The notes below the pieces were generated by a model. The model saw only the letters and a list, made by a program, of their open reading frames with translations, was not told where the DNA came from and did no database searches. Positions 1,849-16,068 of a stretch of DNA of 64,000 nt are shown piece by piece; positions within the stretch are counted from its first letter, which is position 1; each line of letters begins with the position of its first letter. The stretch lies in contig JAUIFA010000001.1 in assembly GCA_030429625.1 (NCBI GenBank), positions 97,306 to 161,305 on the forward strand. Direction: 5' to 3'. A program made the translations under genes and the position numbers. The DNA is from Alphaproteobacteria bacterium. Its GTDB lineage: Bacteria; Pseudomonadota; Alphaproteobacteria; Rickettsiales; UBA8987.

Positions 1849-4683
1849 ATGAAGAAATTATTTATTTTTGCTTTTACAGCTGCCCTATTTTTATTGTCTT
1901 ATAAACCAGCCTTGGCTGATTCTACCCCTGTCCCTCTGCCTCCCTTGCCCGGTTTTGCTTCTGTAGAAGAAGCACAGCAACTTTCCGAGAGTGTAGAAAA
2001 GGAAGAAAAAGCAGAGATGCCAAAACTTGAAGATCTTCCAGAATTTGCTGACGTTGAAGAAGAAAATACCTCTGAAGATTTGCCAACGCTTGAGGATTTA
2101 CCAGAATTTGATGAGGCGGGAACAGATGAGGTGGATCATGAGGGAGCAAACACCCTTGTTGAGGACGCATTAGGCGTATTAAAAAGCAGTACCATCAAGT
2201 CCGCTCATGCGGATGCTGAACCGTCAAACGACATTGATGAAGAGGTAACAACCGAATCAATATTAGAAATGGCTGACGATGTGCTTCAGGCAAGCAAAGA
2301 TTCGGTGAGAGAAAATATTTCAGAAATTGAGCAAACCGATATGTCAGATTTGTCTATTGAGATGGATATGGATGAAGAAGAGTCTGACATGGAAGGGGAA
2401 TTGCTGTCTGAGGAAATCATTCAGGCTCAGGAAGAGTTGCCCGCGCTTGAAGCTGAGATTGAGATGGCCGAAGACGATGTGCCAGTATTGCAGCTTGAAG
2501 AAAGTGTGGATACGGCGGAGCAAGACGTTGTGGCCGTGGCAGAAGAAGTGGAAGAAGAAATCCAGGACATAGTCTCCCAAGATTCAGTGGAAGAAGCTGA
2601 GGTAATGGATTTAGACATGGAAGACATGGATATTACTTCTGAAGAGCTGGAAACACAGGCATTTGAAGAATTTGATGATAAGGCAGAAGAATTTTCAGAC
2701 ATGGAAGACATGGATGAGGAGGAAGCCCTACCATCCCTAGAACAAGAGCTGGATATGGCGGAAGAGGGCGATATAGATGGTCTTGATGATATGCCAGAGG
2801 CTGAACTTGTGGAGTCAGAACCAATTTCCGATATAAACCACACGCTTGTTCAAGATATTCCCGCAGAGCTTCCAGACATGCAGGTGCCTGAGGTTGAGAG
2901 CGGTACAGACAATGCGGAAGATTTGTTTGCGCAAGAAATTTTAGATTTGCCAGAGTCTCCTGTTGAAACGGCTAAGGACATGCCAGAATCAGAAGCGCTG
3001 GAAGTAACCGTAGAAAAACAAGATATTGAAGATTTGTCCAAGGCATTTGGAGCCGATGAAAAGGAACAGGCAGAGCTTGAGGCACTGTTTGCGGAAGAGG
3101 GCTTGCCGGCTCCAGACATTAAAGAAGTAAAAGCCGCAGTTCAGGAAGAAATAGCACAGGACGATACCGATTGGGCAATTAGCAGCTGGTCTTTAAACGA
3201 ACTTTCTAGCAAGGAAAAGCGTGATCAAGACGTCGCCGAGTTAGTAAATAAACGTAAAAACGCGCTTGCCAAAGACAATGACTTCGTTGTGCCAAACTTT
3301 ATGTATAAGAGGGCATACAACAAATCAAATTCTCACCTGCCAAAGGCAATTTACCAAAGTGACCTTGATAGACAAATGGTCATGGCCGCCGCCAAAGGTG
3401 ATATGGCGGGTGTGCGCTCTCTACTTAATTCTGGCGTGTCTGTAAATTCGGTGGACAATAATGGCAACAGCGCGTTGATGCTTGCTGTGGCAAATAACCA
3501 TAAAGATCTTGTGAATCTTTTGATTCTAAGAGGAGCCGACATCAATGTGGCAAACAATGAAGGTGTGACAGCCCTGCATGTGGCTATTGATAAAAACAAG
3601 CCTTATTTTGTCAACATTCTTTTGTATAAAGGTGCGGATGTAAATGTTGCTAGTGCCAATGGTACGACGGCGCTGATGCGTGCGATTATGGCAAACAATG
3701 ATGTGGTATTTAACACATTGGTTGACAATGGTGCGAACATAAGAGCAACAACAAGGAATGACGTTACAGCATTGCACACAGCGGCGCAGCTTGGGCAGGT
3801 GCAAATGGTTGAACGGTTGCTTAAAGAAGGTGCCGTGCCAAACGCTAAAACCAAAGATGGTTTTGTCCCCGAAGAACTTGCGGTGATAAATGGGCATTCG
3901 CAAATTGCCTCCACAATTGCCCTGTTTACTGCCGAGCTTATCAAGCAGCATCAGGCAGAATTGCTCAAAGAACATAAACAAATCAAACAAGAGCGGGAAG
4001 AGTTGGCACAGGCCATGTCCATGCCGTTTGATGGGGAAAGAAGATACAATCGGCTAAACAAGGCTGAGCAACATATCTGGGATCAGCGTTTGAGAAACTG
4101 GGTTAATGTGCAAAATAATTTTGATGATTTAAATTTAGAAGATAAAATACTCTGGAACGATCGCCGGAAAAAATTACAATCTATTTACGCTCAGCAGCTT
4201 TTTGCCTCTTTAACGGAGTTAGGTGCGGATCCGATTGCTATGGTATCGCATTGGGATGAATTTGAAAAATCTCTTCCACAGATCATTGAAGAGAAAAAAC
4301 AGCGCAAAGAACAAATGCTAAAACTTATATCGGATTGGAAGGCAACAGATGCGCAGTTTGACACAATGTCTTTTGAGGAGAGGGTCGCTGCCAACACCAA
4401 GCGCATACAAATGCTTGAGAAATTGTTGGGCGGTAAAGAGTCGGGTGAATTGTCTGATGTGTTCTTCGAATTGCCCATTGAAGAGCGTGAGCAATTACGC
4501 GCTTCCATGGCCAAATGGGATGTTTTTGAACGCACCATTGATGTGGAGGATCCCGAAGCACAATTTATCTCAAAATCCGCAGGGGTAGACTCTGTGCCTT
4601 CATCGCAAGACATTGATATGGAACAAATATTGATGGATAAGCAAGATCTGATGCAGCAAGACATTGAGTTTGACCAAAAATAA
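1849..4683 (+). CDS. Secreted ankyrin-repeat protein with a long acidic N-terminal region and a coiled-coil-like C-terminus
   Basis: ORF 1837..4683. The ATG at 1849 gives MKKLFIFAFTAALFLLSYKPALA, which looks like a Sec signal. About 450 aa are D/E-rich low complexity, including LEDLPEF twice (nt 2026-2047 and 2089-2110). Five to six ANK repeats lie around nt 3376-3915 (NGNSALMLAV..GADIN, EGVTALHVAI..GADVN, NGTTALMRAI, DVTALHTAAQLG). Confidence 0.85.
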   Translation: MKKLFIFAFTAALFLLSYKPALADSTPVPLPPLPGFASVEEAQQLSESVEKEEKAEMPKLEDLPEFADVEEENTSEDLPTLEDLPEFDEAGTDEVDHEGANTLVEDALGVLKSSTIKSAHADAEPSNDIDEEVTTESILEMADDVLQASKDSVRENISEIEQTDMSDLSIEMDMDEEESDMEGELLSEEIIQAQEELPALEAEIEMAEDDVPVLQLEESVDTAEQDVVAVAEEVEEEIQDIVSQDSVEEAEVMDLDMEDMDITSEELETQAFEEFDDKAEEFSDMEDMDEEEALPSLEQELDMAEEGDIDGLDDMPEAELVESEPISDINHTLVQDIPAELPDMQVPEVESGTDNAEDLFAQEILDLPESPVETAKDMPESEALEVTVEKQDIEDLSKAFGADEKEQAELEALFAEEGLPAPDIKEVKAAVQEEIAQDDTDWAISSWSLNELSSKEKRDQDVAELVNKRKNALAKDNDFVVPNFMYKRAYNKSNSHLPKAIYQSDLDRQMVMAAAKGDMAGVRSLLNSGVSVNSVDNNGNSALMLAVANNHKDLVNLLILRGADINVANNEGVTALHVAIDKNKPYFVNILLYKGADVNVASANGTTALMRAIMANNDVVFNTLVDNGANIRATTRNDVTALHTAAQLGQVQMVERLLKEGAVPNAKTKDGFVPEELAVINGHSQIASTIALFTAELIKQHQAELLKEHKQIKQEREELAQAMSMPFDGERRYNRLNKAEQHIWDQRLRNWVNVQNNFDDLNLEDKILWNDRRKKLQSIYAQQLFASLTELGADPIAMVSHWDEFEKSLPQIIEEKKQRKEQMLKLISDWKATDAQFDTMSFEERVAANTKRIQMLEKLLGGKESGELSDVFFELPIEEREQLRASMAKWDVFERTIDVEDPEAQFISKSAGVDSVPSSQDIDMEQILMDKQDLMQQDIEFDQK

Positions 4684-4762: not shown

Positions 4763-6478
4763 ATGTCGGACACATTCGATAAATCAAAATTACCAAGCAG
4801 ACATGTCACCGAAGGGCCGGAACGTGCCCCCCATCGTTCGTATTATTACGCCATGGGGATGACGGAGGCACAAATCCATCAGCCATTGGTGGGGGTGGTC
4901 AGTACGTGGAACGAAGCCGCCCCATGTAATATTGCGCTACAGCGTCAGGCACAGGTAGCCAAAAAAGGCGTGTGGGCGGCCGGTGGTACTCCGCGTGAAT
5001 TTACAACCATTACGGTGACCGATGGTATTGCCATGGGGCATCAGGGCATGAAATCCTCTCTGGTCAGCCGTGAGGTGATTGCCGATTCAACCGAATTGAC
5101 TGTGCGTGGGCATTGTTATGACGCTTTGGTTGGCCTTGCCGGCTGTGATAAATCCCTACCCGGCTTGATGATGGCCATGTGCCGTTTGAACATTCCTTCG
5201 GTCTTTATGTATGGTGGCTCTATTCTGCCGGGAAAATATAAAGGTAAAGACGTGACAGTGGTAGACGTATTTGAGGGCGTGGGCAAATATGAGGCAGGCA
5301 ATATGGACGCATCAGAATTGCATGATCTTGAACAAGTGGCTTGCCCATCTTCTGGATCTTGCGGGGGTCAGTTTACCGCCAACACGATGGCCTGTGTGAG
5401 CGAAGCCATTGGCTTGGCGTTGCCAGGGTCTGCCGGTGCGCCAGCGCCCTATGAAACACGGGACGATTATGCGTTTGAATCAGGCAAAGCGGTGATGGAA
5501 TTGATCAAAACTGGCCTGCGCCCACGCGATATTGTGACCCGTAAAGCGTTGGAAAATGCGGCGCGTGTGGTGGCGGCCACAGGTGGTTCTACTAATGCGG
5601 GGTTACATTTGCCCGCCATTGCCAGCGAATGTGGTATTGAATTTACTTTGGCAGATGTGGGAGAGATTTTCCGCTCGACTCCTTATATCTCTGATTTAAA
5701 ACCCGGCGGCAAATACGTGGCCAAAGACATGTACGACATTGGTGGTGTTCAGGTGGTGATTAAAGAGCTTCTTAAGGCGGGTTATATCCATGGCGATTGT
5801 ATCACGGTGACCGGCAAAACCATTGCGGAGAATTGTGCCGATGCACGAGATGCCGATGGTAAAGTGGTTTATTCCGTTAAGAACTGTTTATCAGAAACCG
5901 GCGGAGTGGTGACGTTGAAAGGCAATTTGGCGCCGGAAGGTTGTATTGTGAAGATTGCTGGTATGAGTCGCCTTCGCCATGAAGGTCCGGCTCGAGTTTT
6001 CGATTGTGAAGAAGATGCGTTTGAAGCGGTTAAAAAGCAGGATTACAAAGAGGGCGATGTAATCGTCATCCGTTATGAAGGGCCAAAGGGTGGGCCGGGT
6101 ATGCGTGAGATGTTATCTACCACTGCCGCTTTGGCCGGTCAGGGTATGAGTAATGTTGCCTTGATCACTGATGGGCGTTTTTCCGGTGGAACACGTGGCT
6201 TCTGCATTGGCCATGTGGGACCTGAAGCGGCCGATGGCGGTCCGATTGCCTTGCTTAAAGACGGTGACATGATTACACTCGATGCGACAAAGGGGGAGAT
6301 ATCGGTTGCGCTTTCGGATGCTGAGCTTGCTGACCGTAAGAAGGCTTGGAAGCCAAGACTCAACGAGTATCAATCCGGCACATTGTGGAAATATGCCAAC
6401 TCGGTAGGGCCAGCGTATAAAGGGGCGTTGACGCATCCTGGGGCTAAGTCAGAAGTTAAGCAATATAAAGATATATAA
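4763..6478 (+). CDS. ilvD: Dihydroxy-acid dehydratase
   Basis: 571 aa. The motif pattern matches the IlvD/Edd family ([36 protein letters not shown]). An AGGAG-like RBS precedes the ATG. Confidence 0.93.
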
Positions 6479-7229: not shown

Positions 7230-7850
7230 TCATTTTTCCGCAGGTTTGTCTGCCGCACCGATAATAGGCTGTTTCTCAACTTTATTTTCTTCCTCCACCA
7301 CAGCCTCATTGTTTATCACAGGCATGGATTCAGGAATGGTTTCTTTTATGTTGCGGACAAATTTGATGGCCGGTTGCCACATTTTGTCTTTAATAGAGCC
7401 TACCAGATTATGCATCACGTCTTCATCGAGCTTTAATACGCGGATACCTTCGCGTTCATCAATCATATTATCGGTTGAAACACTGTGATTAATGATGGCT
7501 GGGCGTTTTTTAATGATTGGTGCGTACAAGGTTAGATTATCGTCCTCTAGCGTGTAGTAGAACATGGCTTGTGCATCTGGGCCTTTTAGAAGAAGAAATT
7601 TATAACCGTCCCATGTTAGGGTCTTCATGTCGGTTTGAGACACACGATCGCCTTTGACCGGATCAATCTGTATCAATTTATCGTCGTCACGGACAATAAG
7701 AAATTGTTCCTTGCGTACCGGCTCTTTGTACCACTGCCCAGGAAAATCACTGTCTACTTCAGCCCTGTCCCACATTGCTCCAAAATCTTCCACCAGCAAA
7801 CAGCTGCTTAAGCAGACAATAAGAACTGATAACATAGCCAATAAACGCAT
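7230..7850 (-). CDS. Hypothetical lipoprotein, translationally coupled to atpC
   Basis: MRLLAMLSVLIVCLSSC has a signal peptide and a lipobox-like LSSC. Its ATG overlaps the atpC stop (TAATG at 7848-7852). I recognise no family. Confidence 0.5.
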   Translation of the reverse strand: MRLLAMLSVLIVCLSSCLLVEDFGAMWDRAEVDSDFPGQWYKEPVRKEQFLIVRDDDKLIQIDPVKGDRVSQTDMKTLTWDGYKFLLLKGPDAQAMFYYTLEDDNLTLYAPIIKKRPAIINHSVSTDNMIDEREGIRVLKLDEDVMHNLVGSIKDKMWQPAIKFVRNIKETIPESMPVINNEAVVEEENKVEKQPIIGAADKPAEK

Positions 7851-8242
7851 TATTTACAAAGCTCCACAAGTTTTTCAATGTTTTTAATTTCTTCTTCAAA
7901 CGCTTCTTTTTCGGGCTCAGAAATTGACGCTGCAAGTTTATCCTTAGTTACGGATAACAAAGCCTTTGCTTCAGATTTTGAGAATTTATCAAGGTCAAAC
8001 GCATCGGTCGCCAAAATAGTGCAACGATCACCAGTGACTTCAGCAAAGCCACCCGTAACAAAGATTTGCCCACTGATTGTGTCTTTCTCATACAGGCTGA
8101 TAACCCCTGGACAGAGCGTTGAGATAAGGTTTGAATGCGCCTCTAAAACCCCAAATTCTCCTTCGGAACCTGGAATTACAGCCATGGTCACCTCTTCAGA
8201 AGAGACTACTTTTTCAGGTGTTACAAGATCAACTGTTAGCAT
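7850..8242 (-). CDS. atpC: F1 ATP synthase epsilon subunit
   Basis: 130 aa. Opens VDLVTPEKVVSSEEVTMAVIPGSEGEFGVL and lies directly downstream of atpD. Confidence 0.9.
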   Translation of the reverse strand: MLTVDLVTPEKVVSSEEVTMAVIPGSEGEFGVLEAHSNLISTLCPGVISLYEKDTISGQIFVTGGFAEVTGDRCTILATDAFDLDKFSKSEAKALLSVTKDKLAASISEPEKEAFEEEIKNIEKLVELCK

Positions 8243-8269
8243 GTTTTATCCTTATCCAACAACAAATGT

Positions 8270-9715
<1,446 letters not shown>

Positions 9716-9744
9716 TTACTCCACTTTTTTACTTTCTTAATCCA

Positions 9745-10311
9745 TTAAAAGGATTTTGTTTCTTTCATTAATTCATTATTTGTTTTGTCTGATTCCATAA
9801 ACATTACTCTAAAATCTTCGAAATCTTTTCGAAGTATGTATAAAAAGAACCAGTAAGCAGCACCAATATTAACGCATAGAATAACTAAGAGGGCAATAAT
9901 AGGGCCTAGTCCAACGCTAATCAAAGCGCCTGCCACAAAGGTTGCTGCAAGATTGGCGGCAATGTTTCTCCATTGCCATGCCCACCATAGTCGTCTGACC
10001 CGAGAAAGCGTTAAGCCTCTGTTATCGGTTGAATCTGCTGAAATGATATAAGGCACGCCTCTTTTGGAGAAAAAGACTTTGTTAAGAAAAAACTGCTTAA
10101 AATAATAATAAGAAGCCCAAATTACACCAATCCCAGCAATGATCTCTTTATAAGCCTTTGACGTTATTGGATTGATTCCTGTAATTTTAAAAACTATTGC
10201 ACAAACAATATTTATGGCAATACCAATTAAAAGAATCCGCCAGAATATTCCCCACCAAATAGCAGTTGCCCTGATGTCCTCATGTTGTAATGATTGATTT
10301 TCAGTCATCAT
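9745..10311 (-). CDS. Four-TM membrane protein of unknown function inserted between atpG and atpD (internal two-fold repeat)
   Basis: 188 aa. Its ATG overlaps the atpG TGA (ATGA at 10308-10311). There are four hydrophobic segments. The two halves resemble each other: AIWWGIFWRILLIG...YYYFKQFFLNK versus RLWWAWQWRNIAAN...YWFFLYILRK. The gene is AT-rich relative to atpD. Confidence 0.6.
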   Translation of the reverse strand: MMTENQSLQHEDIRATAIWWGIFWRILLIGIAINIVCAIVFKITGINPITSKAYKEIIAGIGVIWASYYYFKQFFLNKVFFSKRGVPYIISADSTDNRGLTLSRVRRLWWAWQWRNIAANLAATFVAGALISVGLGPIIALLVILCVNIGAAYWFFLYILRKDFEDFRVMFMESDKTNNELMKETKSF

Positions 10312-11210
10312 ACACTCTCCGCCCCAGCAATAATTTCAATAAGCTCAGTGGTGATCGCAGCCTGACGGGAGCGGTTATACTGAAGCGTCAAATCGTTAAT
10401 CATTTCACCGGCATTGCGAGTGGCATTGTCCATCGCCGTCATCCGTGAGCCTTGTTCCGAAGCCGAATTTTCCAGAATTGCATGGAAAATTTGTACCGCA
10501 ACGTTGCGTGGCAATAATTCTTCGAGAACGGCCTCCTCTCCCGGTTCATAATCATAGGAGGACTGCACATCAGAGGCAGAATGTTCTTTATCTAAATTTC
10601 CAATTTCAAGGGGAATAAGCTGTTGAAACGTAACTTCTTGGGTCAGCGCATTGATAAATTTATTATACACGATGGAACAAGAATCAATTTCTTCCGATTG
10701 GAATAAGTCGATCACATGAACGGCCAGTTTCTCTGCATCGTCAAAGTCATAGCTGGCTCTATTGTCCGTTTTGGCTTTGTAACAGATCAGGCTTTCGTAA
10801 CCAAAACGAAGCTGCTCCAGCCCTTTCCGGCCAAAAGTAATGAGTTTTACCTTTTTGCCTTGGCTCTGTAAGGCAGCGATTTTGTGTTTGGTTGCTTTGA
10901 CAATAGAACTGTTGAAGCCACCACAAAGTCCCTTGTCCGCCGTAGCAACGATAATCAGGTGGGTTTTGTCCACAAGGTTTTGTTGTTCATCACGGTGACC
11001 AGAAAGCAGCTTGGGCGCTGTATCCACGCATATGGCAGCCGCTAGAGTTGATAGCATACGTTCCATTTTTTCCGTATAAGGGCGTGCACGTTCAGCACGT
11101 TCCTGAGCCTGGCGCAACTTACTGGCGGCAACCATCTGCATCGCCCGCGTAATTTTACGCGTGGATTTTACACTGTCGATGCGGTTCTTAAGTTCTTTTA
11201 AGTTCGACAC
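10308..11210 (-). CDS. atpG: F1 ATP synthase gamma subunit
   Basis: 300 aa. Starts MSNLKELKNRIDSVKSTRKITRAMQMVAASKLR and ends ITTELIEIIAGAESV. Confidence 0.93.
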   Translation of the reverse strand: MSNLKELKNRIDSVKSTRKITRAMQMVAASKLRQAQERAERARPYTEKMERMLSTLAAAICVDTAPKLLSGHRDEQQNLVDKTHLIIVATADKGLCGGFNSSIVKATKHKIAALQSQGKKVKLITFGRKGLEQLRFGYESLICYKAKTDNRASYDFDDAEKLAVHVIDLFQSEEIDSCSIVYNKFINALTQEVTFQQLIPLEIGNLDKEHSASDVQSSYDYEPGEEAVLEELLPRNVAVQIFHAILENSASEQGSRMTAMDNATRNAGEMINDLTLQYNRSRQAAITTELIEIIAGAESV

Positions 11211-11219
11211 GTTTTACAC

Positions 11220-12755
11220 CTAGCCTTTGACAAATACTTTTACGAGTTTTTTAAGAATATCATGCAGTTTGCCTTCAATATCCTTATCCAACACCTTCTT
11301 CGTGCGGATTGCATCCAACAAGTCAGCATGGCTGTCATGAATTTCACGCAATAAATTGGCTTCAAAATCCGTTACGTCCTCTGCTGGAATCGTGTCCAGA
11401 TAGCCATTAACACCGGCAAAGATAGCAATGGTCTGCTCCTCAAATTTAAGAGGAGAATATTGATCTTGTTTCAACACTTCTACCAAACGTGCGCCACGGT
11501 TAAGCAATTGTTGTGTCGCCGCATCAAGGTCAGAGCCAAATTGGGCAAATGCTTCCATCTCACGATATTGTGCCAGTTCCAGCTTGATAGGCCCGGCGAC
11601 TTGCTTCATCGCTTTTACTTGTGCCGCAGAACCCACACGGGATACGGATAGACCCACATTAACGGCCGGACGAATCCCCTTATAGAACAAGTTTGTTTCA
11701 AGGAAGATCTGTCCGTCTGTGATTGAAATCACGTTCGTTGGGATATACGCCGAAACATCACCACCTTGTGTTTCAATAATCGGTAGCGCGGTCAAAGAGC
11801 CAGCCCCTAACGCATCAGAAAGTTTTGCAGCACGTTCAAGCAAACGTGAATGCAGATAGAACACATCACCCGGATAAGCTTCACGCCCCGGTGGACGACG
11901 TAGCAACAACGACATTTCACGATAGGCCACCGCATGCTTAGAGAGATCGTCATAGGTGATCAGCGCATGCATGGAGTTATCACGGAAATACTCACCCATG
12001 GTACAGCCGGTATAAGGAGCAAGGAACTGCAATGGAGCTGCTTCAGAAGCCGTAGCCGCAACAATAATTGAATATTTTAGCGCACCTTCTTCTTCAAGCT
12101 TCTTAGCAATCTGCGCTACAGTAGAACGTTTTTGACCAATACACACATAGATGCAATAGATCTTATCTTCTTCATTATCACCATCATGTGCTGCACGTTG
12201 GTTGAGCATTGCGTCAATGGCAATAGCGGTTTTCCCAGTTTGCCTATCACCAATGATCAACTCCCGCTGACCACGTCCAATCGGGATCAAACCATCAATG
12301 GCCTTAATACCGGTTTGCACAGGCTGATGCACCGACTTACGGGCAATGATCCCCGGTGCTTTGGTTTCTACTGCTTTATAAGTCACGTTTTTTAAAGGGC
12401 CTTTGCCGTCAATTGGGTTACCAAGTGCGTCCACCACACGGCCAAGCAAACCTTTGCCGGTAGGTACTTCAACAATTTTACCCGTACGCTTAACAACATC
12501 ACCTTCTTTGACATCTTTAGAGCTTCCGAACAATACTACGCCGACATTGTCTTCTTCAAGGTTGAGCGCCATTCCCACAGCGCCACCAGGAAATTCAAGC
12601 ATCTCACCGGCTTGAGCTTGATCCAGCCCATGTACCGTAGCAATACCATCACCCACTGACACCACATGGCCAATTTCTTTAAGTTCACTCTCGCTAGAAA
12701 AATCAGCGATTTGTTTCTTCAGAATACCTGAAATTTCCGAAGCTCGGATTTCCAT
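11220..12755 (-). CDS. atpA: F1 ATP synthase alpha subunit
   Basis: 511 aa. Walker A is [20 protein letters not shown] and [21 protein letters not shown] are also present. Confidence 0.97.
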
Positions 12756-12799
12756 AATAACTTCCTTTCTTAAATAGTTTTAAAACCAGAGAACCAAGG

Positions 12800-13360
12800 T
12801 CAACTGGCATTTTTTAAATATAGTTTCGTGCTCTCAAGCTTTCCAGAGAGAGAGCAATCGAGCATTTGTGAACCAATCGTAACAATCAGACCACCCAAAA
12901 TAGAGTCATCGACTTCTTCTTCCAGCAAGACAATCTTGCCGGTATTTTTAGAAAGCAACGATGTAATTTCTTTTAGTTCAGACTTCTTCAGAGCTTTTGC
13001 AGACGTGACGGTAGCTTTAACCTCGCCTTTGCTTTGGGACATAATTTCATCATAGGCAGTCACTATCTCGCGCATAATACTCAAACGTCCATTGGCACCG
13101 AGCACCACACAAAATTTGTGCGTAAGTTCTGAAATTTTAATTTTTGCAAAAATAGCAAGCGCGGCATTAGCAACCTGATCTTTGGGCAATATAGGGCTTT
13201 GAAGAACGGAGGAAAATTCTTCTGAAGAGTAGATTATATCGTCGATGGCGTTTAAATCTTTAGCAACTTCCTCAATTTTTTTGCCGTCATGAGCCAGATC
13301 GAACAACGCTTGGGCGTAACGGCGGGCAATGAGTGCCTTGCTAAACTGTTTCTTTGCCAT
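12800..13360 (-). CDS. atpH: F1 ATP synthase delta (OSCP) subunit
   Basis: 186 aa. Contains ARRYAQALFDLA and ILGGLIVTIGSQMLDCSLSGKL. It is the first gene of the atpHAGDC operon. Confidence 0.85.
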   Translation of the reverse strand: MAKKQFSKALIARRYAQALFDLAHDGKKIEEVAKDLNAIDDIIYSSEEFSSVLQSPILPKDQVANAALAIFAKIKISELTHKFCVVLGANGRLSIMREIVTAYDEIMSQSKGEVKATVTSAKALKKSELKEITSLLSKNTGKIVLLEEEVDDSILGGLIVTIGSQMLDCSLSGKLESTKLYLKNAS

Positions 13361-13548: not shown

Positions 13549-14184
13549 TTACCAACTTGCAGACGCATGGTTTCGTTGGTCTGATTCTTCGTCAAAGTTA
13601 TTTATTTTTTTACCGTCAGGCAGGTGATTATTTATCTCTGAGATGATATCATTGCGCAGATCTTCTATTTGTGTAGGCAACTTTGCACCGGTGATGTTTG
13701 AGGCCACCCCCAGCCGTTCAATTACCTTTTTCCCACCTGCTCCAAAGCCAAGTCCATAGGTATTTTCTAAATTGGCAAAGTTAAAATTCGCGCCGTCAAT
13801 TTTTGTGTTGTATAATTTGGTGAAGGACAAATCTGCTTTTCTAAAATCACAATATTGTACATTCGCACCATCAAGCTGAACATCGGTGAGATTGGAATTT
13901 GTAAAGATAGTATGTTCGGCAGTGACCCCACTCAAGACAACTTTTGATAAATCATAATTTGAAAAGTCTCGTCCGGAAATATTAGAGTTGGTCATGTCAA
14001 TGCACAAATCCTTCTGACCCTTGGAGAAGCTGGCCATTCTTGTAAGCCGTGTGAAGAGTTCACGTACTTTAGACTTACGCATGTCCACATTACGCAAATC
14101 TAAATCCCTAAGGTCGAGTACCCCGTTGACAAAGGAATCCTCCATACGAATAAGGAATTGTGTTGTGGTAATTGTTTGTAACAT
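13549..14184 (-). CDS. Pentapeptide-repeat protein
   Basis: 211 aa. Consecutive A(D/N)LxX-type pentads run from about residue 65 to 135, for example NISGRDFSNYDLSKVVLSGV, TNSNLTDVQLDGANVQYCDFRKADLSFTKL and GANFNFANLEN. Confidence 0.75.
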   Translation of the reverse strand: MLQTITTTQFLIRMEDSFVNGVLDLRDLDLRNVDMRKSKVRELFTRLTRMASFSKGQKDLCIDMTNSNISGRDFSNYDLSKVVLSGVTAEHTIFTNSNLTDVQLDGANVQYCDFRKADLSFTKLYNTKIDGANFNFANLENTYGLGFGAGGKKVIERLGVASNITGAKLPTQIEDLRNDIISEINNHLPDGKKINNFDEESDQRNHASASW

Positions 14185-14319: not shown

Positions 14320-16068
14320 ATGGTAGAAACACCACACATATCACACATTGCCGCCAGCGGAAGTGGTGGGGGCAACAATCCATCAGGAGCCAGCAGTCAA
14401 ACCACAGTTTTAAAAATACCATCTGGGCTGGAAAATCTGCAACCGGGTCGGGTGGTAGAGGCGGTGGTTGTCGGAAAAGATATGCATCAAAACACCCAAC
14501 TGCATGTCAAGCAAGGCACTCAATTGGACGAGTTGACCGTTTCGAGCAAACTGCATTTACCAAAACAAAGCAGCCTGTTAATCAAGATTCTGGAAAACGC
14601 AGTAGGCAAGGACGGTCATGCGCATTTTAGAGCGCAAATACTTTCTGTGGATGGGAAAGAGCCAAATTTACCAAAAACAACAAACGGTGAAACCATAAAA
14701 TATTCTGACATCTTAAGGGCGGTTTTGCCCAGCGGGGGTGGCACAGGAAAACCATCGCCTATAATTCCAAATCCGTCCGAAGAGGTAACGGTAGTCAATG
14801 TTTCTAAGGGGGCAGTTCTGGGGGCGGTGGTGGTCAAACCTAGCCCTCAGTCCTCACAATATTTACCCCAATCATCTTTGGCCAATGCTGCAGTAAAAGC
14901 CTATGGCGGGGAAGCAACCTCTCTTAAAGAATTTGATCAGGTGCAATTAAAGGTCATATCGTATAAGACAGATGGAGAAGTGGGTTTTAAGCCGTCTAAT
15001 GCGACAACGAGCAACACAACAAAAGACGTGAGTTACAGTGCGTATCAAAAAGCCGGGGCGGAAGGCACGTATACAAAACCGTCAGGGGAAGGAATTTCAA
15101 CCAAAGAAGCGGTTTCAGCATTTGCCAATCGTAATGCAGGGACACAAGCGCAAAATTCATCATTGATGGAACAATCAGGCAAAGTTTTTACGGCCAAAGT
15201 TATCGGAATAGAAAAATCCGGAGAGGCGGTATTGTCAAGTCCTTTAGGAACATTGACATTGTCTTCTGCTGTAAAATTAGCGCCGGGAAGCACACTAAAT
15301 CTGGAGGTGATTTCTCATATGTTAAAATCAGAAATGGCCGAAGGCGCGCAGACAGATCAGAAATTTATTACCAACAATTACAAACAGGCTTTTTCCGGAG
15401 AAAATTCCCCATTGCATGGGTTGTTTAAACAGCTGCAATCCATTCAGGGTAGAGATGGTGGAATTATTCGGGATATTTTCCCCAGCAATAATAATCAGGC
15501 AGCGGCCAAATTATTGTGGTTTTTGTTCAACATACAAGGCGGCAGTGCTGCGGGCTGGATAGGGAAAGACAACACACAGATATTGGCCAAGTCCGACCAG
15601 AAAGACATCCTAAAGAAATTGGAAAACACGTTTTCTAATATGAGAAAATTATACAATGAAACCAATCAGGCAGGGTGGCATACGGCCATCTTTCCGTTTT
15701 ACGATGGCGAGGATCTTCAATTTGGCAGGTTCTATTCCAGACAGGATGAGTCTGACAAAACCAAAGGCAATGATGTTCGGTTTCTTGTTGAACTTGAGCT
15801 AGACAATTTGGGGGAATTCCAATTGGACGGATTCATCAAAGAGAAGCCGTCAAAAGACAACATATACGGCAAACAGTTTGATCTTTACGTGCGTTATAAG
15901 AATGAGATTGATGGTGGAATGGAAAAAGAAATCAGAGAACTATTTGAGGCCTCTTTAGGTGCTTCCGGCCTACGGGGGCAGATCATTTTTGAACGTGTAA
16001 AAAACTTTCCCATCCATCCGGATGAGGAGGTGGAATTGAGTGAAGATAGCGGTGAGATTATAGTTTAG
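14320..16068 (+). CDS. Hypothetical 582-aa protein with a C-terminal region reminiscent of the FliK hook-length-control C-terminal domain
   Basis: The N-terminal two thirds are S/T/G/Q/P-rich. The C-terminus (DVRFLVELELDNLGEFQLDGFI...FDLYVRY...EIRELFEASLGASGL) matches my recollection of the Flg_hook/FliK-C pattern. No flagellar genes lie nearby. Confidence 0.35.
   Translation: MVETPHISHIAASGSGGGNNPSGASSQTTVLKIPSGLENLQPGRVVEAVVVGKDMHQNTQLHVKQGTQLDELTVSSKLHLPKQSSLLIKILENAVGKDGHAHFRAQILSVDGKEPNLPKTTNGETIKYSDILRAVLPSGGGTGKPSPIIPNPSEEVTVVNVSKGAVLGAVVVKPSPQSSQYLPQSSLANAAVKAYGGEATSLKEFDQVQLKVISYKTDGEVGFKPSNATTSNTTKDVSYSAYQKAGAEGTYTKPSGEGISTKEAVSAFANRNAGTQAQNSSLMEQSGKVFTAKVIGIEKSGEAVLSSPLGTLTLSSAVKLAPGSTLNLEVISHMLKSEMAEGAQTDQKFITNNYKQAFSGENSPLHGLFKQLQSIQGRDGGIIRDIFPSNNNQAAAKLLWFLFNIQGGSAAGWIGKDNTQILAKSDQKDILKKLENTFSNMRKLYNETNQAGWHTAIFPFYDGEDLQFGRFYSRQDESDKTKGNDVRFLVELELDNLGEFQLDGFIKEKPSKDNIYGKQFDLYVRYKNEIDGGMEKEIRELFEASLGASGLRGQIIFERVKNFPIHPDEEVELSEDSGEIIV

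Follow-up and report, generated by a model that had tools for sequence, protein, structure and literature searches.

Results

The reading frame orf188 lies on the minus strand of a 64,000-nt stretch of alphaproteobacterial DNA, hereafter called the window, where it separates the genes for the gamma and beta subunits of the F1 sector of ATP synthase. Its coordinates and anatomy, as given in the original prediction (a 188-aa frame that overlaps the atpG stop at 10308-10311 and ends 32 nt from atpD), were confirmed. The features of the locus are:

7230..13360, minus strand: co-oriented string atpH-atpA-atpG-orf188-atpD-atpC-orf206
10308..11210, minus strand: atpG (F1 gamma), upstream neighbour of orf188 (PF00231 on the identical protein P0031)
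10317..10320, minus strand: GGAG, putative Shine-Dalgarno-like site for orf188 within the atpG 3' end, 5 nt before the ATG (sequence)
10308..10311, minus strand: ATGA in which the start codon of orf188 overlaps the stop codon of atpG, translational-coupling junction (sequence)
9745..10311, minus strand: orf188, 188-aa inner-membrane protein of two 2-TM hairpin units in tandem, unannotated family (ORF list, sequence, HMMER, AF2)
9713..9744, minus strand: 32-nt spacer between orf188 and atpD (sequence)
8270..9712, minus strand: atpD (F1 beta), downstream neighbour of orf188 (82.6% identical to atpD of the related locus L082)

The atpG gene ends in GTA TGA, and the ATG of orf188 occupies 10311-10309; a second in-frame ATG follows directly, giving a TGATG arrangement. 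At the other end, the TAA of orf188 (9747-9745) is followed by the atpD ATG at 9712, which has a GGAG of its own 6 nt upstream (9722-9719) in the spacer. The last gene of the string, the lipoprotein-like orf206, is coupled to atpC by TAATG. A scan of the orf188/atpD spacer found no minus-strand terminator-like site, and promoter signals in the same scan were not in excess over shuffled sequence. Since the coding strand of the spacer carries no terminator, orf188 is expected to be co-transcribed with the F1 genes. The earlier view of orf188 as a gene embedded in the F1 operon is supported, in a position suited to translational coupling.

Within the protein, two related units could be delimited:

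10027..10290, minus strand: unit 1 (about residues 8-95), with IWWGIFWR, TM1, TM2 and a degenerate C-terminal motif, NKVFFSKRGVPYIIS (alignments A1 and A2; 27.0 bits against the leave-out profile)
9784..10026, minus strand: unit 2 (about residues 96-176), with LWWAWQWR, TM3, TM4 and the canonical LRKDFEDFRVMF (A1; 58.1 bits against the leave-out profile)
10237..10260, minus strand: WWxxWR motif of unit 1 (I18-R25), at the predicted cytoplasmic membrane interface (A1; positive-inside topology)
9967..9990, minus strand: WWxxWR motif of unit 2 (L108-R115) (A1)
9799..9834, minus strand: C-terminal juxtamembrane motif of unit 2 (L160-F171, LRKDFEDFRVMF) (A1; K, F, F and R columns conserved)

The tandem duplication of a two-TM unit that had been read from the sequence is real: a half-versus-half BLASTP comparison gave E = 2e-4, and each half separately matched a family profile made without orf188 (27.0 and 58.1 bits; best of 2000 shuffles, 11.3 bits). 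Both units carry W-W-x3-W-R directly before their first TM helix, as IWWGIFWR (18-25) and LWWAWQWR (108-115). The motif L-x-K-x-F-x-x-F-R-(V/I)-x-L after the second TM helix is present in unit 2 (LRKDFEDFRVMF) and degenerate in unit 1 (NKVFFSKRGVPYII); unit 1 of the homolog P0002 shares this derived, degenerate and expanded form (KKVFNTSDGRNFIVT). In the AF2 model of unit 2, a hairpin of helices H6-37 and H40-65 with a pLDDT of 84.7, the C-terminal juxtamembrane motif is non-helical. The full-length AF2 model shows four long helices, and a simple hydropathy scan resolved three of the four TM segments in orf188 and all four in P0002, so that the proposed four-TM protein is supported by AF2 and broadly by hydropathy. 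The models of unit 2 alone and of the full-length protein fit a module that is a two-helix membrane hairpin with a short outer loop, with which both hydropathy and charge agree. Basic residues are concentrated in the N-terminus, the linker and the C-terminus, and the hairpin loops are short; the N and C termini are therefore probably cytoplasmic. The TM columns of A1 hold no conserved charge, and the TM helices of orf188 contain no acidic residue.

Homologs of orf188 were sought by an exhaustive HMMER (phmmer) scan of 1.84 billion proteins with a cut-off of E<=1e-3. The scan returned 20 matches, 18 of which are true distant homologs; P0003 (669 aa) and P0010, repetitive translations matching on 'WW.WQ' words only, were left out. 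The true homologs are either single units (86-110 aa) or tandems (170-226 aa) and have in common WWxxWR before TM1 and KxFxxFR(V/I)xL after TM2. A leave-out profile of 19 units from proteins other than orf188 gave orf188 a score of 79.3 bits (Z = 1.84e9, E = 3e-17), as compared to at most 11.3 bits for 2000 shuffles. In alignment A1 (23 units), W13, W14 and W18 are invariant, and R19 and an F are near-invariant. The family consists of P0002, P0004-P0009, P0011-P0020 and P0021-P0030, which their sources name 'hypothetical protein'. The closest homolog of orf188 is P0002 (33% identity, E = 2e-13), whereas unit 2 of orf188, taken by itself, has its nearest relative in P0011, a protein of one unit (43% identity). 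In P0005 the two units share 63% identity; between P0009 and P0014 like units pair, the first with the first and the second with the second. Tandem fusions of the hairpin module thus appear to have arisen independently.

Other searches added few members. A word-indexed search of 5.8 billion proteins with orf188 found orf188 itself only; with the unit profile it found ten members on short contigs, none of them named. A metagenome scan with the alignment of orf188 and P0002 returned the contig of P0002 alone; the other copies of P0002 are identical at the nucleotide level. A degenerate DNA pattern for IWWAWQWR gave, in viral contigs, two chance matches in a large unrelated ORF. Searches of Pfam, NCBIfam, PHROG, PADLOC and the PDB sequence profile with orf188 gave no curated-family match above noise. 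Nine relatives of orf188 likewise matched nothing above noise in Pfam and NCBIfam, including AtpI/AtpZ/AtpR-type families, and PHROG and PADLOC returned just weak sub-threshold noise for orf188 and nine relatives. Matches to NCBIfam 'MAG0920' (E = 0.003, far under its cutoff) and to FliQ (E = 0.2-0.7) were dismissed as TM-composition, and Foldseek with full-length and unit models yielded generic helical bundles only (E>1). The profile and structure searches that had been proposed for the 188-aa protein thus recovered a distant family by HMMER and no named family or fold.

Most family members examined, other than orf188 and P0002, lie outside atp operons. Four such contexts were inspected, those of P0007, P0011, P0028 and P0006. 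P0007 and P0011 are found between a peptidase U32 gene and purE, a context in which family members are wedged into housekeeping strings by overlapping stop and start codons; P0028 adjoins gltX, and P0006 is located among membrane ORFs without known function.

We considered whether orf188 might have no function, or be open by chance only, in an intergenic region that has expanded. Such a reading would account for a GC-poor frame that belongs to no annotation-level family and that finds only itself in the word-indexed search of 5.8 billion proteins. However, the distant homologs are significant, the leave-out profile separates orf188 from shuffled sequence (79 versus <=11 bits), the start context is intact with a Shine-Dalgarno site present, the AF2 hairpin is confident, and P0002 occupies the same position between atpG and atpD. 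The homologs, the position of P0002 and the leave-out profile effectively refute a chance frame, which we regard as extremely improbable. Absence of homologs from all relatives, combined with a lack of purifying selection, had been named as grounds for rejecting the gene; a homolog does occur at this junction in another, divergent genome, which rules out a spurious frame. By these comparisons, orf188 is a genuine gene of a rare, undescribed membrane-protein family. As its sole positional homolog is 33% identical, synonymous sites between orf188 and P0002 are saturated.

Inspection of the atpG-atpD spacing in relatives, as the original prediction had suggested, showed that the occupants of this slot vary. 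P0002 lies between atpG and atpD in L082-L084 and L086, after a gene for a SAM methyltransferase; identities between L082 and the window are 62% for atpG, 79% for atpA and 83% for atpD. In the sister genomes L087-L089 (atpG 72% identical to that of the window), which are syntenic with the window through orf202, ubiG and ilvD, the slot holds a 245-aa methyltransferase alone, and in L087 and L089 this gene starts via TAATG at the same atpG junction as orf188. The slot of L092 contains the methyltransferase and a 23S_rRNA_IVP protein, and its operon also carries toxin-antitoxin-type genes (DUF4258/DUF2283, BrnA). An unrelated 91-aa ORF fills the slot of L093, and the slot is empty in L091 and L094. 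A homolog of orf188 is therefore absent from L087-L089, L091, L092, L093 and L094 despite complete atpH-A-G-D(-C) strings. The family HMM found no further member elsewhere in the examined relative loci or in the window, where orf188 is single-copy. Methyltransferase and hairpin protein thus appear to have been gained or lost independently in the slot within the clade.

As background we used 78 alphaproteobacterial loci sampled by GTDB. A contig scan with atpG, dominated by the conserved KITRAMQM pattern, gave only relatives at 49-55% identity, the window's own genome not among them, and was reused for the same purpose. The median atpG-atpD gap in the sampled loci is about 11 nt, in line with the earlier statement that atpG is directly followed by atpD, but this does not hold throughout: a gap of >200 nt with an ORF at the junction occurs in 7/78 loci, as compared to 0, 1 and 2 at the other F1 junctions. 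The ORFs at these seven junctions are unrelated to one another and to orf188. Those of Rhodobacterales encode coiled-coil proteins (75-90 aa), proteins without a Pfam match (256-283 aa) and a DUF6232 protein. Together, these data show that the gamma/beta junction is a preferred, permissive accessory slot of alphaproteobacterial F1 operons, and one that has probably long been occupied in the clade of orf188.

The base composition of orf188 had been taken to suggest later acquisition. The underlying counts were reproduced exactly (17 G+C at 9781-9840; 31 at 9421-9480 in atpD), and the GC content of orf188 is 36.3%, as compared to 46.4-46.6% for atpA, atpG and atpD and 43.3% for the window. In the window, with its 57 ORFs, orf188 is 5th lowest in GC (z = -1.8) and 4th lowest in GC3 (31.7%, z = -1.9); the gene is AT-rich, yet no extreme outlier. 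The conclusion drawn from this composition fails, as slot genes are 4-10 GC points lower than the flanking atp genes in every related locus, including the methyltransferase that is conserved across three lineages. Low GC being typical of gamma/beta slot genes, it does not demonstrate recent acquisition. P0002 is not AT-rich compared with its neighbours.

These values bear on a different account of the origin of orf188, in which the gene, or a cassette of methyltransferase and TM protein, would have come in recently from a relative of lower GC, with the conserved flanks in atpG and atpD serving for homologous recombination. The common position would then reflect a landing pad and not common ancestry; the account concerns origin only and fits either functional reading. 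It is in keeping with the low GC and GC3 of orf188 in a 43% GC window, the lack of a homolog in the sister genomes, the patchy slot content across a star-like set of relatives and the 34% GC of the L082 lineage. Against it, a recombination test at the flanks (atpG, atpD) gave no signal: the window and L082 show no heightened similarity at the 3' end of atpG (84%) or the 5' end of atpD (63%), the corresponding values for the sister L089 being 90% and 76%. Moreover, orf188 and P0002 share just 33% identity, all slot genes are GC-poor relative to atp genes, the clade-conserved methyltransferase too, and orf188 has neither meaningful flanking direct or inverted repeats nor a match in a tblastn search of plasmids and phages. 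We therefore consider recent lateral arrival rather unlikely.

A mobile-element signature was likewise absent around orf188 in PHROG, PADLOC, the repeat search and the plasmid/phage tblastn. These results also weigh on the idea of orf188 as a small membrane protein of selfish or toxic nature (toxin, holin-like protein, addiction element) lodged in an essential, highly expressed operon. The toxin-antitoxin-type and 23S_rRNA_IVP genes in the L092 operon would fit this idea, as would the wedging of relatives into housekeeping strings by overlapping stop and start codons. However, orf188 and nine relatives drew blanks in PHROG and PADLOC bar sub-threshold noise; no partner or antitoxin ORF, repeats, mobility genes or plasmid or phage copies accompany orf188; and no further copy exists in the window or in the relative loci. 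In addition, the motifs are conserved across very distant hosts, suggesting a cellular function. A selfish or toxic role is thus very unlikely.

Discussion

Our best reading is that orf188 encodes a translated, accessory membrane protein. We judge, with a probability of about 0.55, that it is an operon passenger and neither a subunit nor an obligate assembly factor of ATP synthase, because the content of the slot is dispensable and because family members reside elsewhere in unrelated operons. A subunit or obligate assembly factor should be present wherever the enzyme is present in close relatives, and orf188 is not.

The family module is an ~85-residue two-helix hairpin with its conserved residues outside the membrane, in two juxtamembrane motifs on the predicted cytoplasmic side, T..x.L(R/K)IWWAxxWR before TM1 and LxKxFxxFR(V/I)xL after TM2. 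As the module occurs alone or in independently arisen tandem fusions, its working form may comprise no fewer than two hairpins, packed into a four-helix membrane bundle whose N and C termini face the inside; orf188 would represent such a dimer in covalent form, a pseudo-dimer. The gene would be transcribed along with atpHAGDC and translated by ribosomes terminating on atpG, using the ATGA overlap and its own GGAG; given this coupling, we expect orf188 at a roughly gamma-like, low stoichiometric level. The cytoplasmic-face motifs may bind a partner or a lipid interface, and the protein would gain from steady, housekeeping-level co-expression. In the simplest history, an ancestor of this uncultured clade would have carried methyltransferase and TM protein in the slot, followed by differential loss, with the window keeping the TM gene, the sisters the methyltransferase, L082 both and others neither. 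This ancestral cassette needs several independent losses, and lateral replacement via the atpG/atpD flanks, with which the low GC3 of orf188 would be in keeping, may have occurred instead.

Known systems resemble orf188 in part. AtpI/UncI, AtpZ (ATP-synt_I, ATPase_gene1) and the AtpQ/AtpR proteins of N-ATPase operons are likewise small hairpin or 4-TM proteins of high hydrophobicity, encoded on one transcript with ATP synthase genes; they are absent from the purified core enzyme and are dispensable or only mildly important. Their genes head Fo or whole-enzyme operons, whereas orf188 has its place between the gamma and beta genes in a distinct F1 operon and not promoter-proximally in an Fo or complete atp operon. 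No AtpI/AtpZ/AtpR-type model matched orf188 (hmmscan of Pfam and NCBIfam, E<=10), and WWxxWR and KxFxxFR are features of orf188 and not of these proteins. With respect to position, a close parallel is the atp operon of Rhodopseudomonas (Rhodobacter) blastica, in which an additional frame separating the genes for gamma and beta was reportedly described by Tybulewicz, Falk and Walker in 1984. Like orf188, this frame would be an unassigned ORF located exactly where gamma adjoins beta in the F1 operon of an alphaproteobacterium, a phenomenon that recurs in the 7/78 loci of our sample. The F/V-type proteolipid, too, is a hairpin module in single and tandem forms encoded with ATPase genes, V/A-ATPases having a duplicated 4-TM form. 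In contrast to subunit c, however, the TM helices of orf188 lack a membrane-embedded carboxylate or conserved charge, its topology would be opposite, the termini probably being cytoplasmic, and no match to subunit c (PF00137) was found in Pfam, the PDB sequence search or Foldseek. The WWxxWR hairpin family has both motifs, the hairpin and the tandem form in common with orf188, unit 1 of orf188 and P0002 being distinguished by the degenerate, expanded C-terminal motif.

Two observations speak against a mere passenger. Retention of the same position across the divergence of the two genomes (atpG 62% identical) would be rare by chance, and may fairly be read as the outcome of selection for co-expression with F1. 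In addition, the tight coupling to gamma and a membrane site where F1 docks fit an ATP synthase-linked role. The alternative is that orf188 is a lineage-specific accessory factor of ATP synthase: a membrane-anchored protein whose cytoplasmic WWxxWR and KxFxxFR motifs would touch gamma or epsilon of F1, the stalk formed by b/b' or the interface between a and c. Translational coupling would keep its synthesis in step with that of gamma; it would help F1 and Fo to dock or assemble, or would regulate coupling, and may once have worked with the neighbouring methyltransferase. The use of one slot in two divergent genomes, the ATGA overlap with atpG plus the GGAG of orf188, the conservation on the cytoplasmic face and the adjacency of methyltransferase and TM protein in L082 are all consistent with such a factor. 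Small hydrophobic accessory proteins moreover have precedent in atp operons in AtpI, which assists the c-ring, and AtpZ. On the other hand, the gene is missing from the sister genomes and from four more clade members with otherwise normal F1 operons, its nearest single-unit relatives lie between U32 and purE, and similarity to AtpI, AtpZ, AtpR or subunit c is lacking in Pfam at E<=10 as well as in PDB sequence and fold searches. Furthermore, the junction collects unrelated ORFs, toxin-antitoxin-like genes among them. We thus regard an accessory factor as possible but doubtful. A bolder version, by analogy, is that the slot encodes a lineage-specific ATP synthase module in which the tandem hairpin protein docks or regulates F1 by means of its cytoplasmic Trp/Arg and Phe/Arg motifs and the class I SAM methyltransferase modifies ATP synthase, similar in idea to the mitochondrial c-subunit lysine methyltransferase as an ATP synthase-directed modifier; we consider this unlikely.

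Extra non-subunit genes of atp operons, such as AtpI, AtpZ and unassigned frames, are known but poorly understood. What is new here is a protein family with clear motifs that curated libraries miss, and a gamma/beta junction that serves as a preferred accessory slot with two recurrent occupants in one clade. Even if unrelated to ATP synthase, orf188 would provide a clean case of passenger genes using translational coupling in an essential operon. At the same time, it is a concrete candidate, amenable to testing, for an accessory factor of ATP synthase in bacteria related to mitochondria; were the accessory-module reading true, it would add a new layer to the biogenesis or regulation of bacterial F-ATPase in relatives of the mitochondrial ancestor.

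An additional membrane protein gene in the F1 operon

The gene orf188 is located between atpG (F1 gamma) and atpD (F1 beta), with the following junctions:

9745..10311, minus strand: orf188, 188-aa ORF
10308..11210, minus strand: atpG, ending ...GTA TGA
10311-10309, minus strand: ATG start of orf188, forming an ATGA overlap with the atpG stop; a second ATG follows immediately
9747-9745, minus strand: TAA stop of orf188, followed by a 32-nt spacer and the atpD ATG at 9712

GGAG elements were found in the sequence 5 nt before the orf188 start and 6 nt before the atpD start. In the spacer between orf188 and atpD, a consensus scan revealed no coding-strand terminator and no excess of promoter signals over shuffled sequences; the most direct reading is therefore that orf188 is transcribed together with atpH-A-G-D-C. 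The gene thus sits in the F1 operon in a geometry that suits translational coupling to gamma, and it would be expressed at approximately the level of gamma.

orf188 represents a new and rare family of two-TM hairpin proteins

Pfam and NCBIfam searches with orf188 gave no credible match, and a word-indexed search of 5.8 billion proteins returned orf188 itself as the sole match. When 1.84 billion cluster representatives were scanned exhaustively with HMMER, 20 proteins were retrieved at E<=1e-3, of which 18 carry a common module of ~85 residues with the order T..x.L(R/K)IWWAxxWR, TM1, short loop, TM2, LxKxFxxFR(V/I)xL. Three tryptophans are invariant among 23 aligned units, and the R and the second F nearly so. 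A profile built from 19 units, all taken from proteins other than orf188, gave orf188 a score of 79.3 bits (E = 3e-17 when scaled to the whole library), with 58.1 bits for its second half (unit 2) and 27.0 bits for its first (unit 1), while the best of 2000 shuffles reached 11.3 bits. That orf188 is a spurious ORF is, at such scores, extremely improbable: the gene truly codes for a protein, which belongs to a new and rare family of two-TM hairpins. No member was assigned to a family by Pfam, NCBIfam, PHROG or PADLOC, and the sources that name members use "hypothetical protein".

Several matches were rejected. P0003 (669 aa) and P0010 (118 aa), the other two of the 20 proteins from the HMMER scan, are translations of strongly repetitive sequence (repeat units of ~45 aa and ~19 aa, respectively), which match orf188 through words of the "WW.WQ" type alone; they are probably translated satellite DNA and are not counted as homologs. 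Matches in a viral DNA-pattern scan were due to chance only.

All conserved positions of the module lie at its two juxtamembrane ends, and the TM columns hold no conserved charge. Basic residues are concentrated at the N-terminus, in the linker and at the C-terminus, while short, uncharged loops connect the helices of the hairpins. This distribution suggests an N-in/C-in topology that would place both motifs at the cytoplasmic face, where they may constitute the functional surface. AF2 modelled a single unit as a confident helical hairpin (pLDDT 84.7) and whole orf188 as four long helices (pLDDT 64.7; TM regions 75-80); neither model, nor the sequence profile, matched a solved structure.

The original prediction of an internal duplication was borne out, in that the two halves of orf188 match each other by BLASTP (E = 2e-4). 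The family comprises single units of 86-110 aa and tandems of 170-226 aa, and unit comparisons indicate several separate origins of the tandem form. In P0005 the two units share 63% identity; P0009 and P0014 display an older common duplication, each unit pairing with its counterpart (1 with 1, 2 with 2); and the closest relative of orf188 unit 2 is the single-unit protein P0011 (43%). Repeated fusion of hairpin pairs suggests a functional unit of at least two hairpins (a four-helix bundle), and orf188 itself may be a pseudo-dimeric four-helix bundle.

Content of the gamma/beta slot in relatives

The best homolog, P0002 (170 aa, 33% identity, E = 2e-13), likewise occupies the atpG-atpD junction; it comes from an ENA/JGI/Logan population (loci L082-L084 and L086) with the order atpH-atpA-atpG-[257-aa SAM methyltransferase]-[P0002]-atpD-atpC. 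The genome has 34% GC, and its atpG, atpA and atpD products are 62%, 79% and 83% identical to those of the window. Thus one further, divergent genome has a member of the family in this slot. A derived feature, the expanded and degenerate C-terminal motif of unit 1, is common to both proteins and makes them likely orthologs. This positional conservation, together with the coupling to atpG, lends plausibility to the main alternative to the reading favoured below, in which orf188 would serve ATP synthase as an accessory factor specific to this lineage; we consider it the less likely of the two.

Relatives were then chosen by their closest atpG proteins, and their gene contexts were read. The window and L089 are sisters, the remaining relatives being about equidistant. 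L087-L089 (atpG 72%, atpA and atpD 89% identical to the window; synteny through atpC-orf202-ubiG-ilvD) carry in the slot only a 245-aa methyltransferase, whose ATG lies at this same point, overlapping the stop of atpG (TAATG). In L092 the slot contains a methyltransferase and a 23S_rRNA_IVP protein, in L093 an unrelated 91-aa ORF, and in L091 and L094 it is empty. A family HMM detected no further member in the loci of these relatives or in the 64-kb window. Slot content thus turns over among relatives. The slot methyltransferases are orthologous (44-50% identity), and the most economical history would be an ancient cassette of methyltransferase and TM gene that was lost differentially. Replacement by lateral transfer across the conserved flanks is a less likely origin of orf188 than vertical descent with losses; close to the junction, the window and L082 are no more similar than elsewhere.

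The slot methyltransferase, absent from the window, is a class I SAM enzyme of 244-257 aa found in three lineages of the clade. It matches Methyltransf_23, with an N-terminal HWWF motif and hydrophobic C-terminal segments, and no specific NCBIfam equivalog. Its positions are:

L082 7196-7969
L087 1857-2594
L089 5900-6637
L092 4926-5660

Slot genes are generally GC-poor

With 36.3% GC (GC3 31.7%), orf188 is as AT-rich as originally described when compared with atpA, atpG and atpD (46.4-46.6%) or the window (43.3%), and the two hand counts of 17 and 31 G+C were reproduced exactly. Yet it is no extreme outlier, ranking fifth lowest in GC (z = -1.8) and fourth lowest in GC3 (z = -1.9) among 57 window ORFs. 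The flanking atp genes exceed the slot genes by 4-10 GC points at every locus examined, the clade-conserved methyltransferase included; P0002, compared with the genes around it, is not AT-rich. Low GC therefore characterises these accessory genes, which adjoin highly expressed atp genes, and the later acquisition that had been deduced from it does not follow, as low GC alone is no evidence of recent arrival.

The gamma/beta junction is a preferred insertion point

Among 78 usable GTDB-sampled alphaproteobacterial loci from a genome scan, the atpG-atpD gap usually measures tens of bases, and in seven (L016, L019, L021, L022, L036, L053 and L069) it spans 261-880 nt. Such gaps occurred in the same sample at no atpH-atpA, one atpA-atpG and two atpD-atpC junctions, so that gamma/beta is the preferred insertion point of these F1 operons. 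The inserts encode a 75-90-aa coiled-coil protein (L016, L022, L053), a 256-283-aa protein without Pfam match (L021, L036), a DUF6232 membrane protein (L069) and a 125-aa ORF (L019). As early as 1984, the Rhodopseudomonas blastica operon was reportedly noted to carry an unassigned frame between its gamma and beta genes.

Further genes were observed in and around the F1 operons:

7230-7850, minus strand, window: orf206, lipoprotein-like 206-aa ORF with signal peptide and lipobox LSSC
13549-14184, minus strand, window: pentapeptide-repeat protein, directly upstream of atpH
14320-16068, plus strand, window: divergent 582-aa ORF adjoining the pentapeptide-repeat gene, no Pfam match
3497-4001, 5666-6103 and 7609-7872, L092: toxin-antitoxin-type and 23S_rRNA_IVP genes

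The orf206 gene starts on the atpC stop (TAATG at 7850), is conserved in place in the sisters (orf202 of L087 and L089; 33% identity) and lacks a Pfam match. At the F1 operon end it forms a second membrane-anchored passenger. Neither the pentapeptide-repeat protein nor the 582-aa ORF has a conserved counterpart here in the sister locus L089. L092, a clade member on a 2.1-Mb contig, has toxin-antitoxin-type genes within its F1 operon: DUF4258+DUF2283 separate atpA from atpG, and atpD is followed by a BrnA antitoxin-like gene. Its 23S_rRNA_IVP-family protein comes after the methyltransferase, and atpC is not adjacent.

orf188 as a probable accessory passenger

Elsewhere, the four contexts of family members that were examined show no link to ATP synthase. 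A second positional group is formed by P0007 and P0011, single-unit proteins that bear the same WWAWQWR as orf188 unit 2; they lie between a peptidase U32 gene, whose stop they overlap, and purE in two different lineages with 31% and 48% GC (L096 4112-4402, L097, L098 and L095 195-476); P0028 adjoins gltX in a 58% GC genome, and P0006 lies among unknown membrane ORFs. P0007 is present on at least 24 contigs.

A selfish or toxin gene would be a very unlikely identity for orf188, given that it has no meaningful flanking repeats, that no plasmid or phage homologs were found and that PHROG and PADLOC gave no matches. It resembles AtpI and AtpZ only in that it is small and hydrophobic and, without being a subunit, is encoded alongside atp genes; by sequence and position it is neither. 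With subunit c it has in common only a hairpin able to be duplicated, and it differs in having no carboxylate and a topology that would be opposite. We favour, at a probability of roughly 0.55, that orf188 is an accessory passenger, i.e. a small membrane protein that ATP synthase does not need and that has been retained in a permissive slot with an ancient history of occupation. Accessory ORFs are known from atp operons; orf188 is best regarded as one of these, built from an undescribed protein family.
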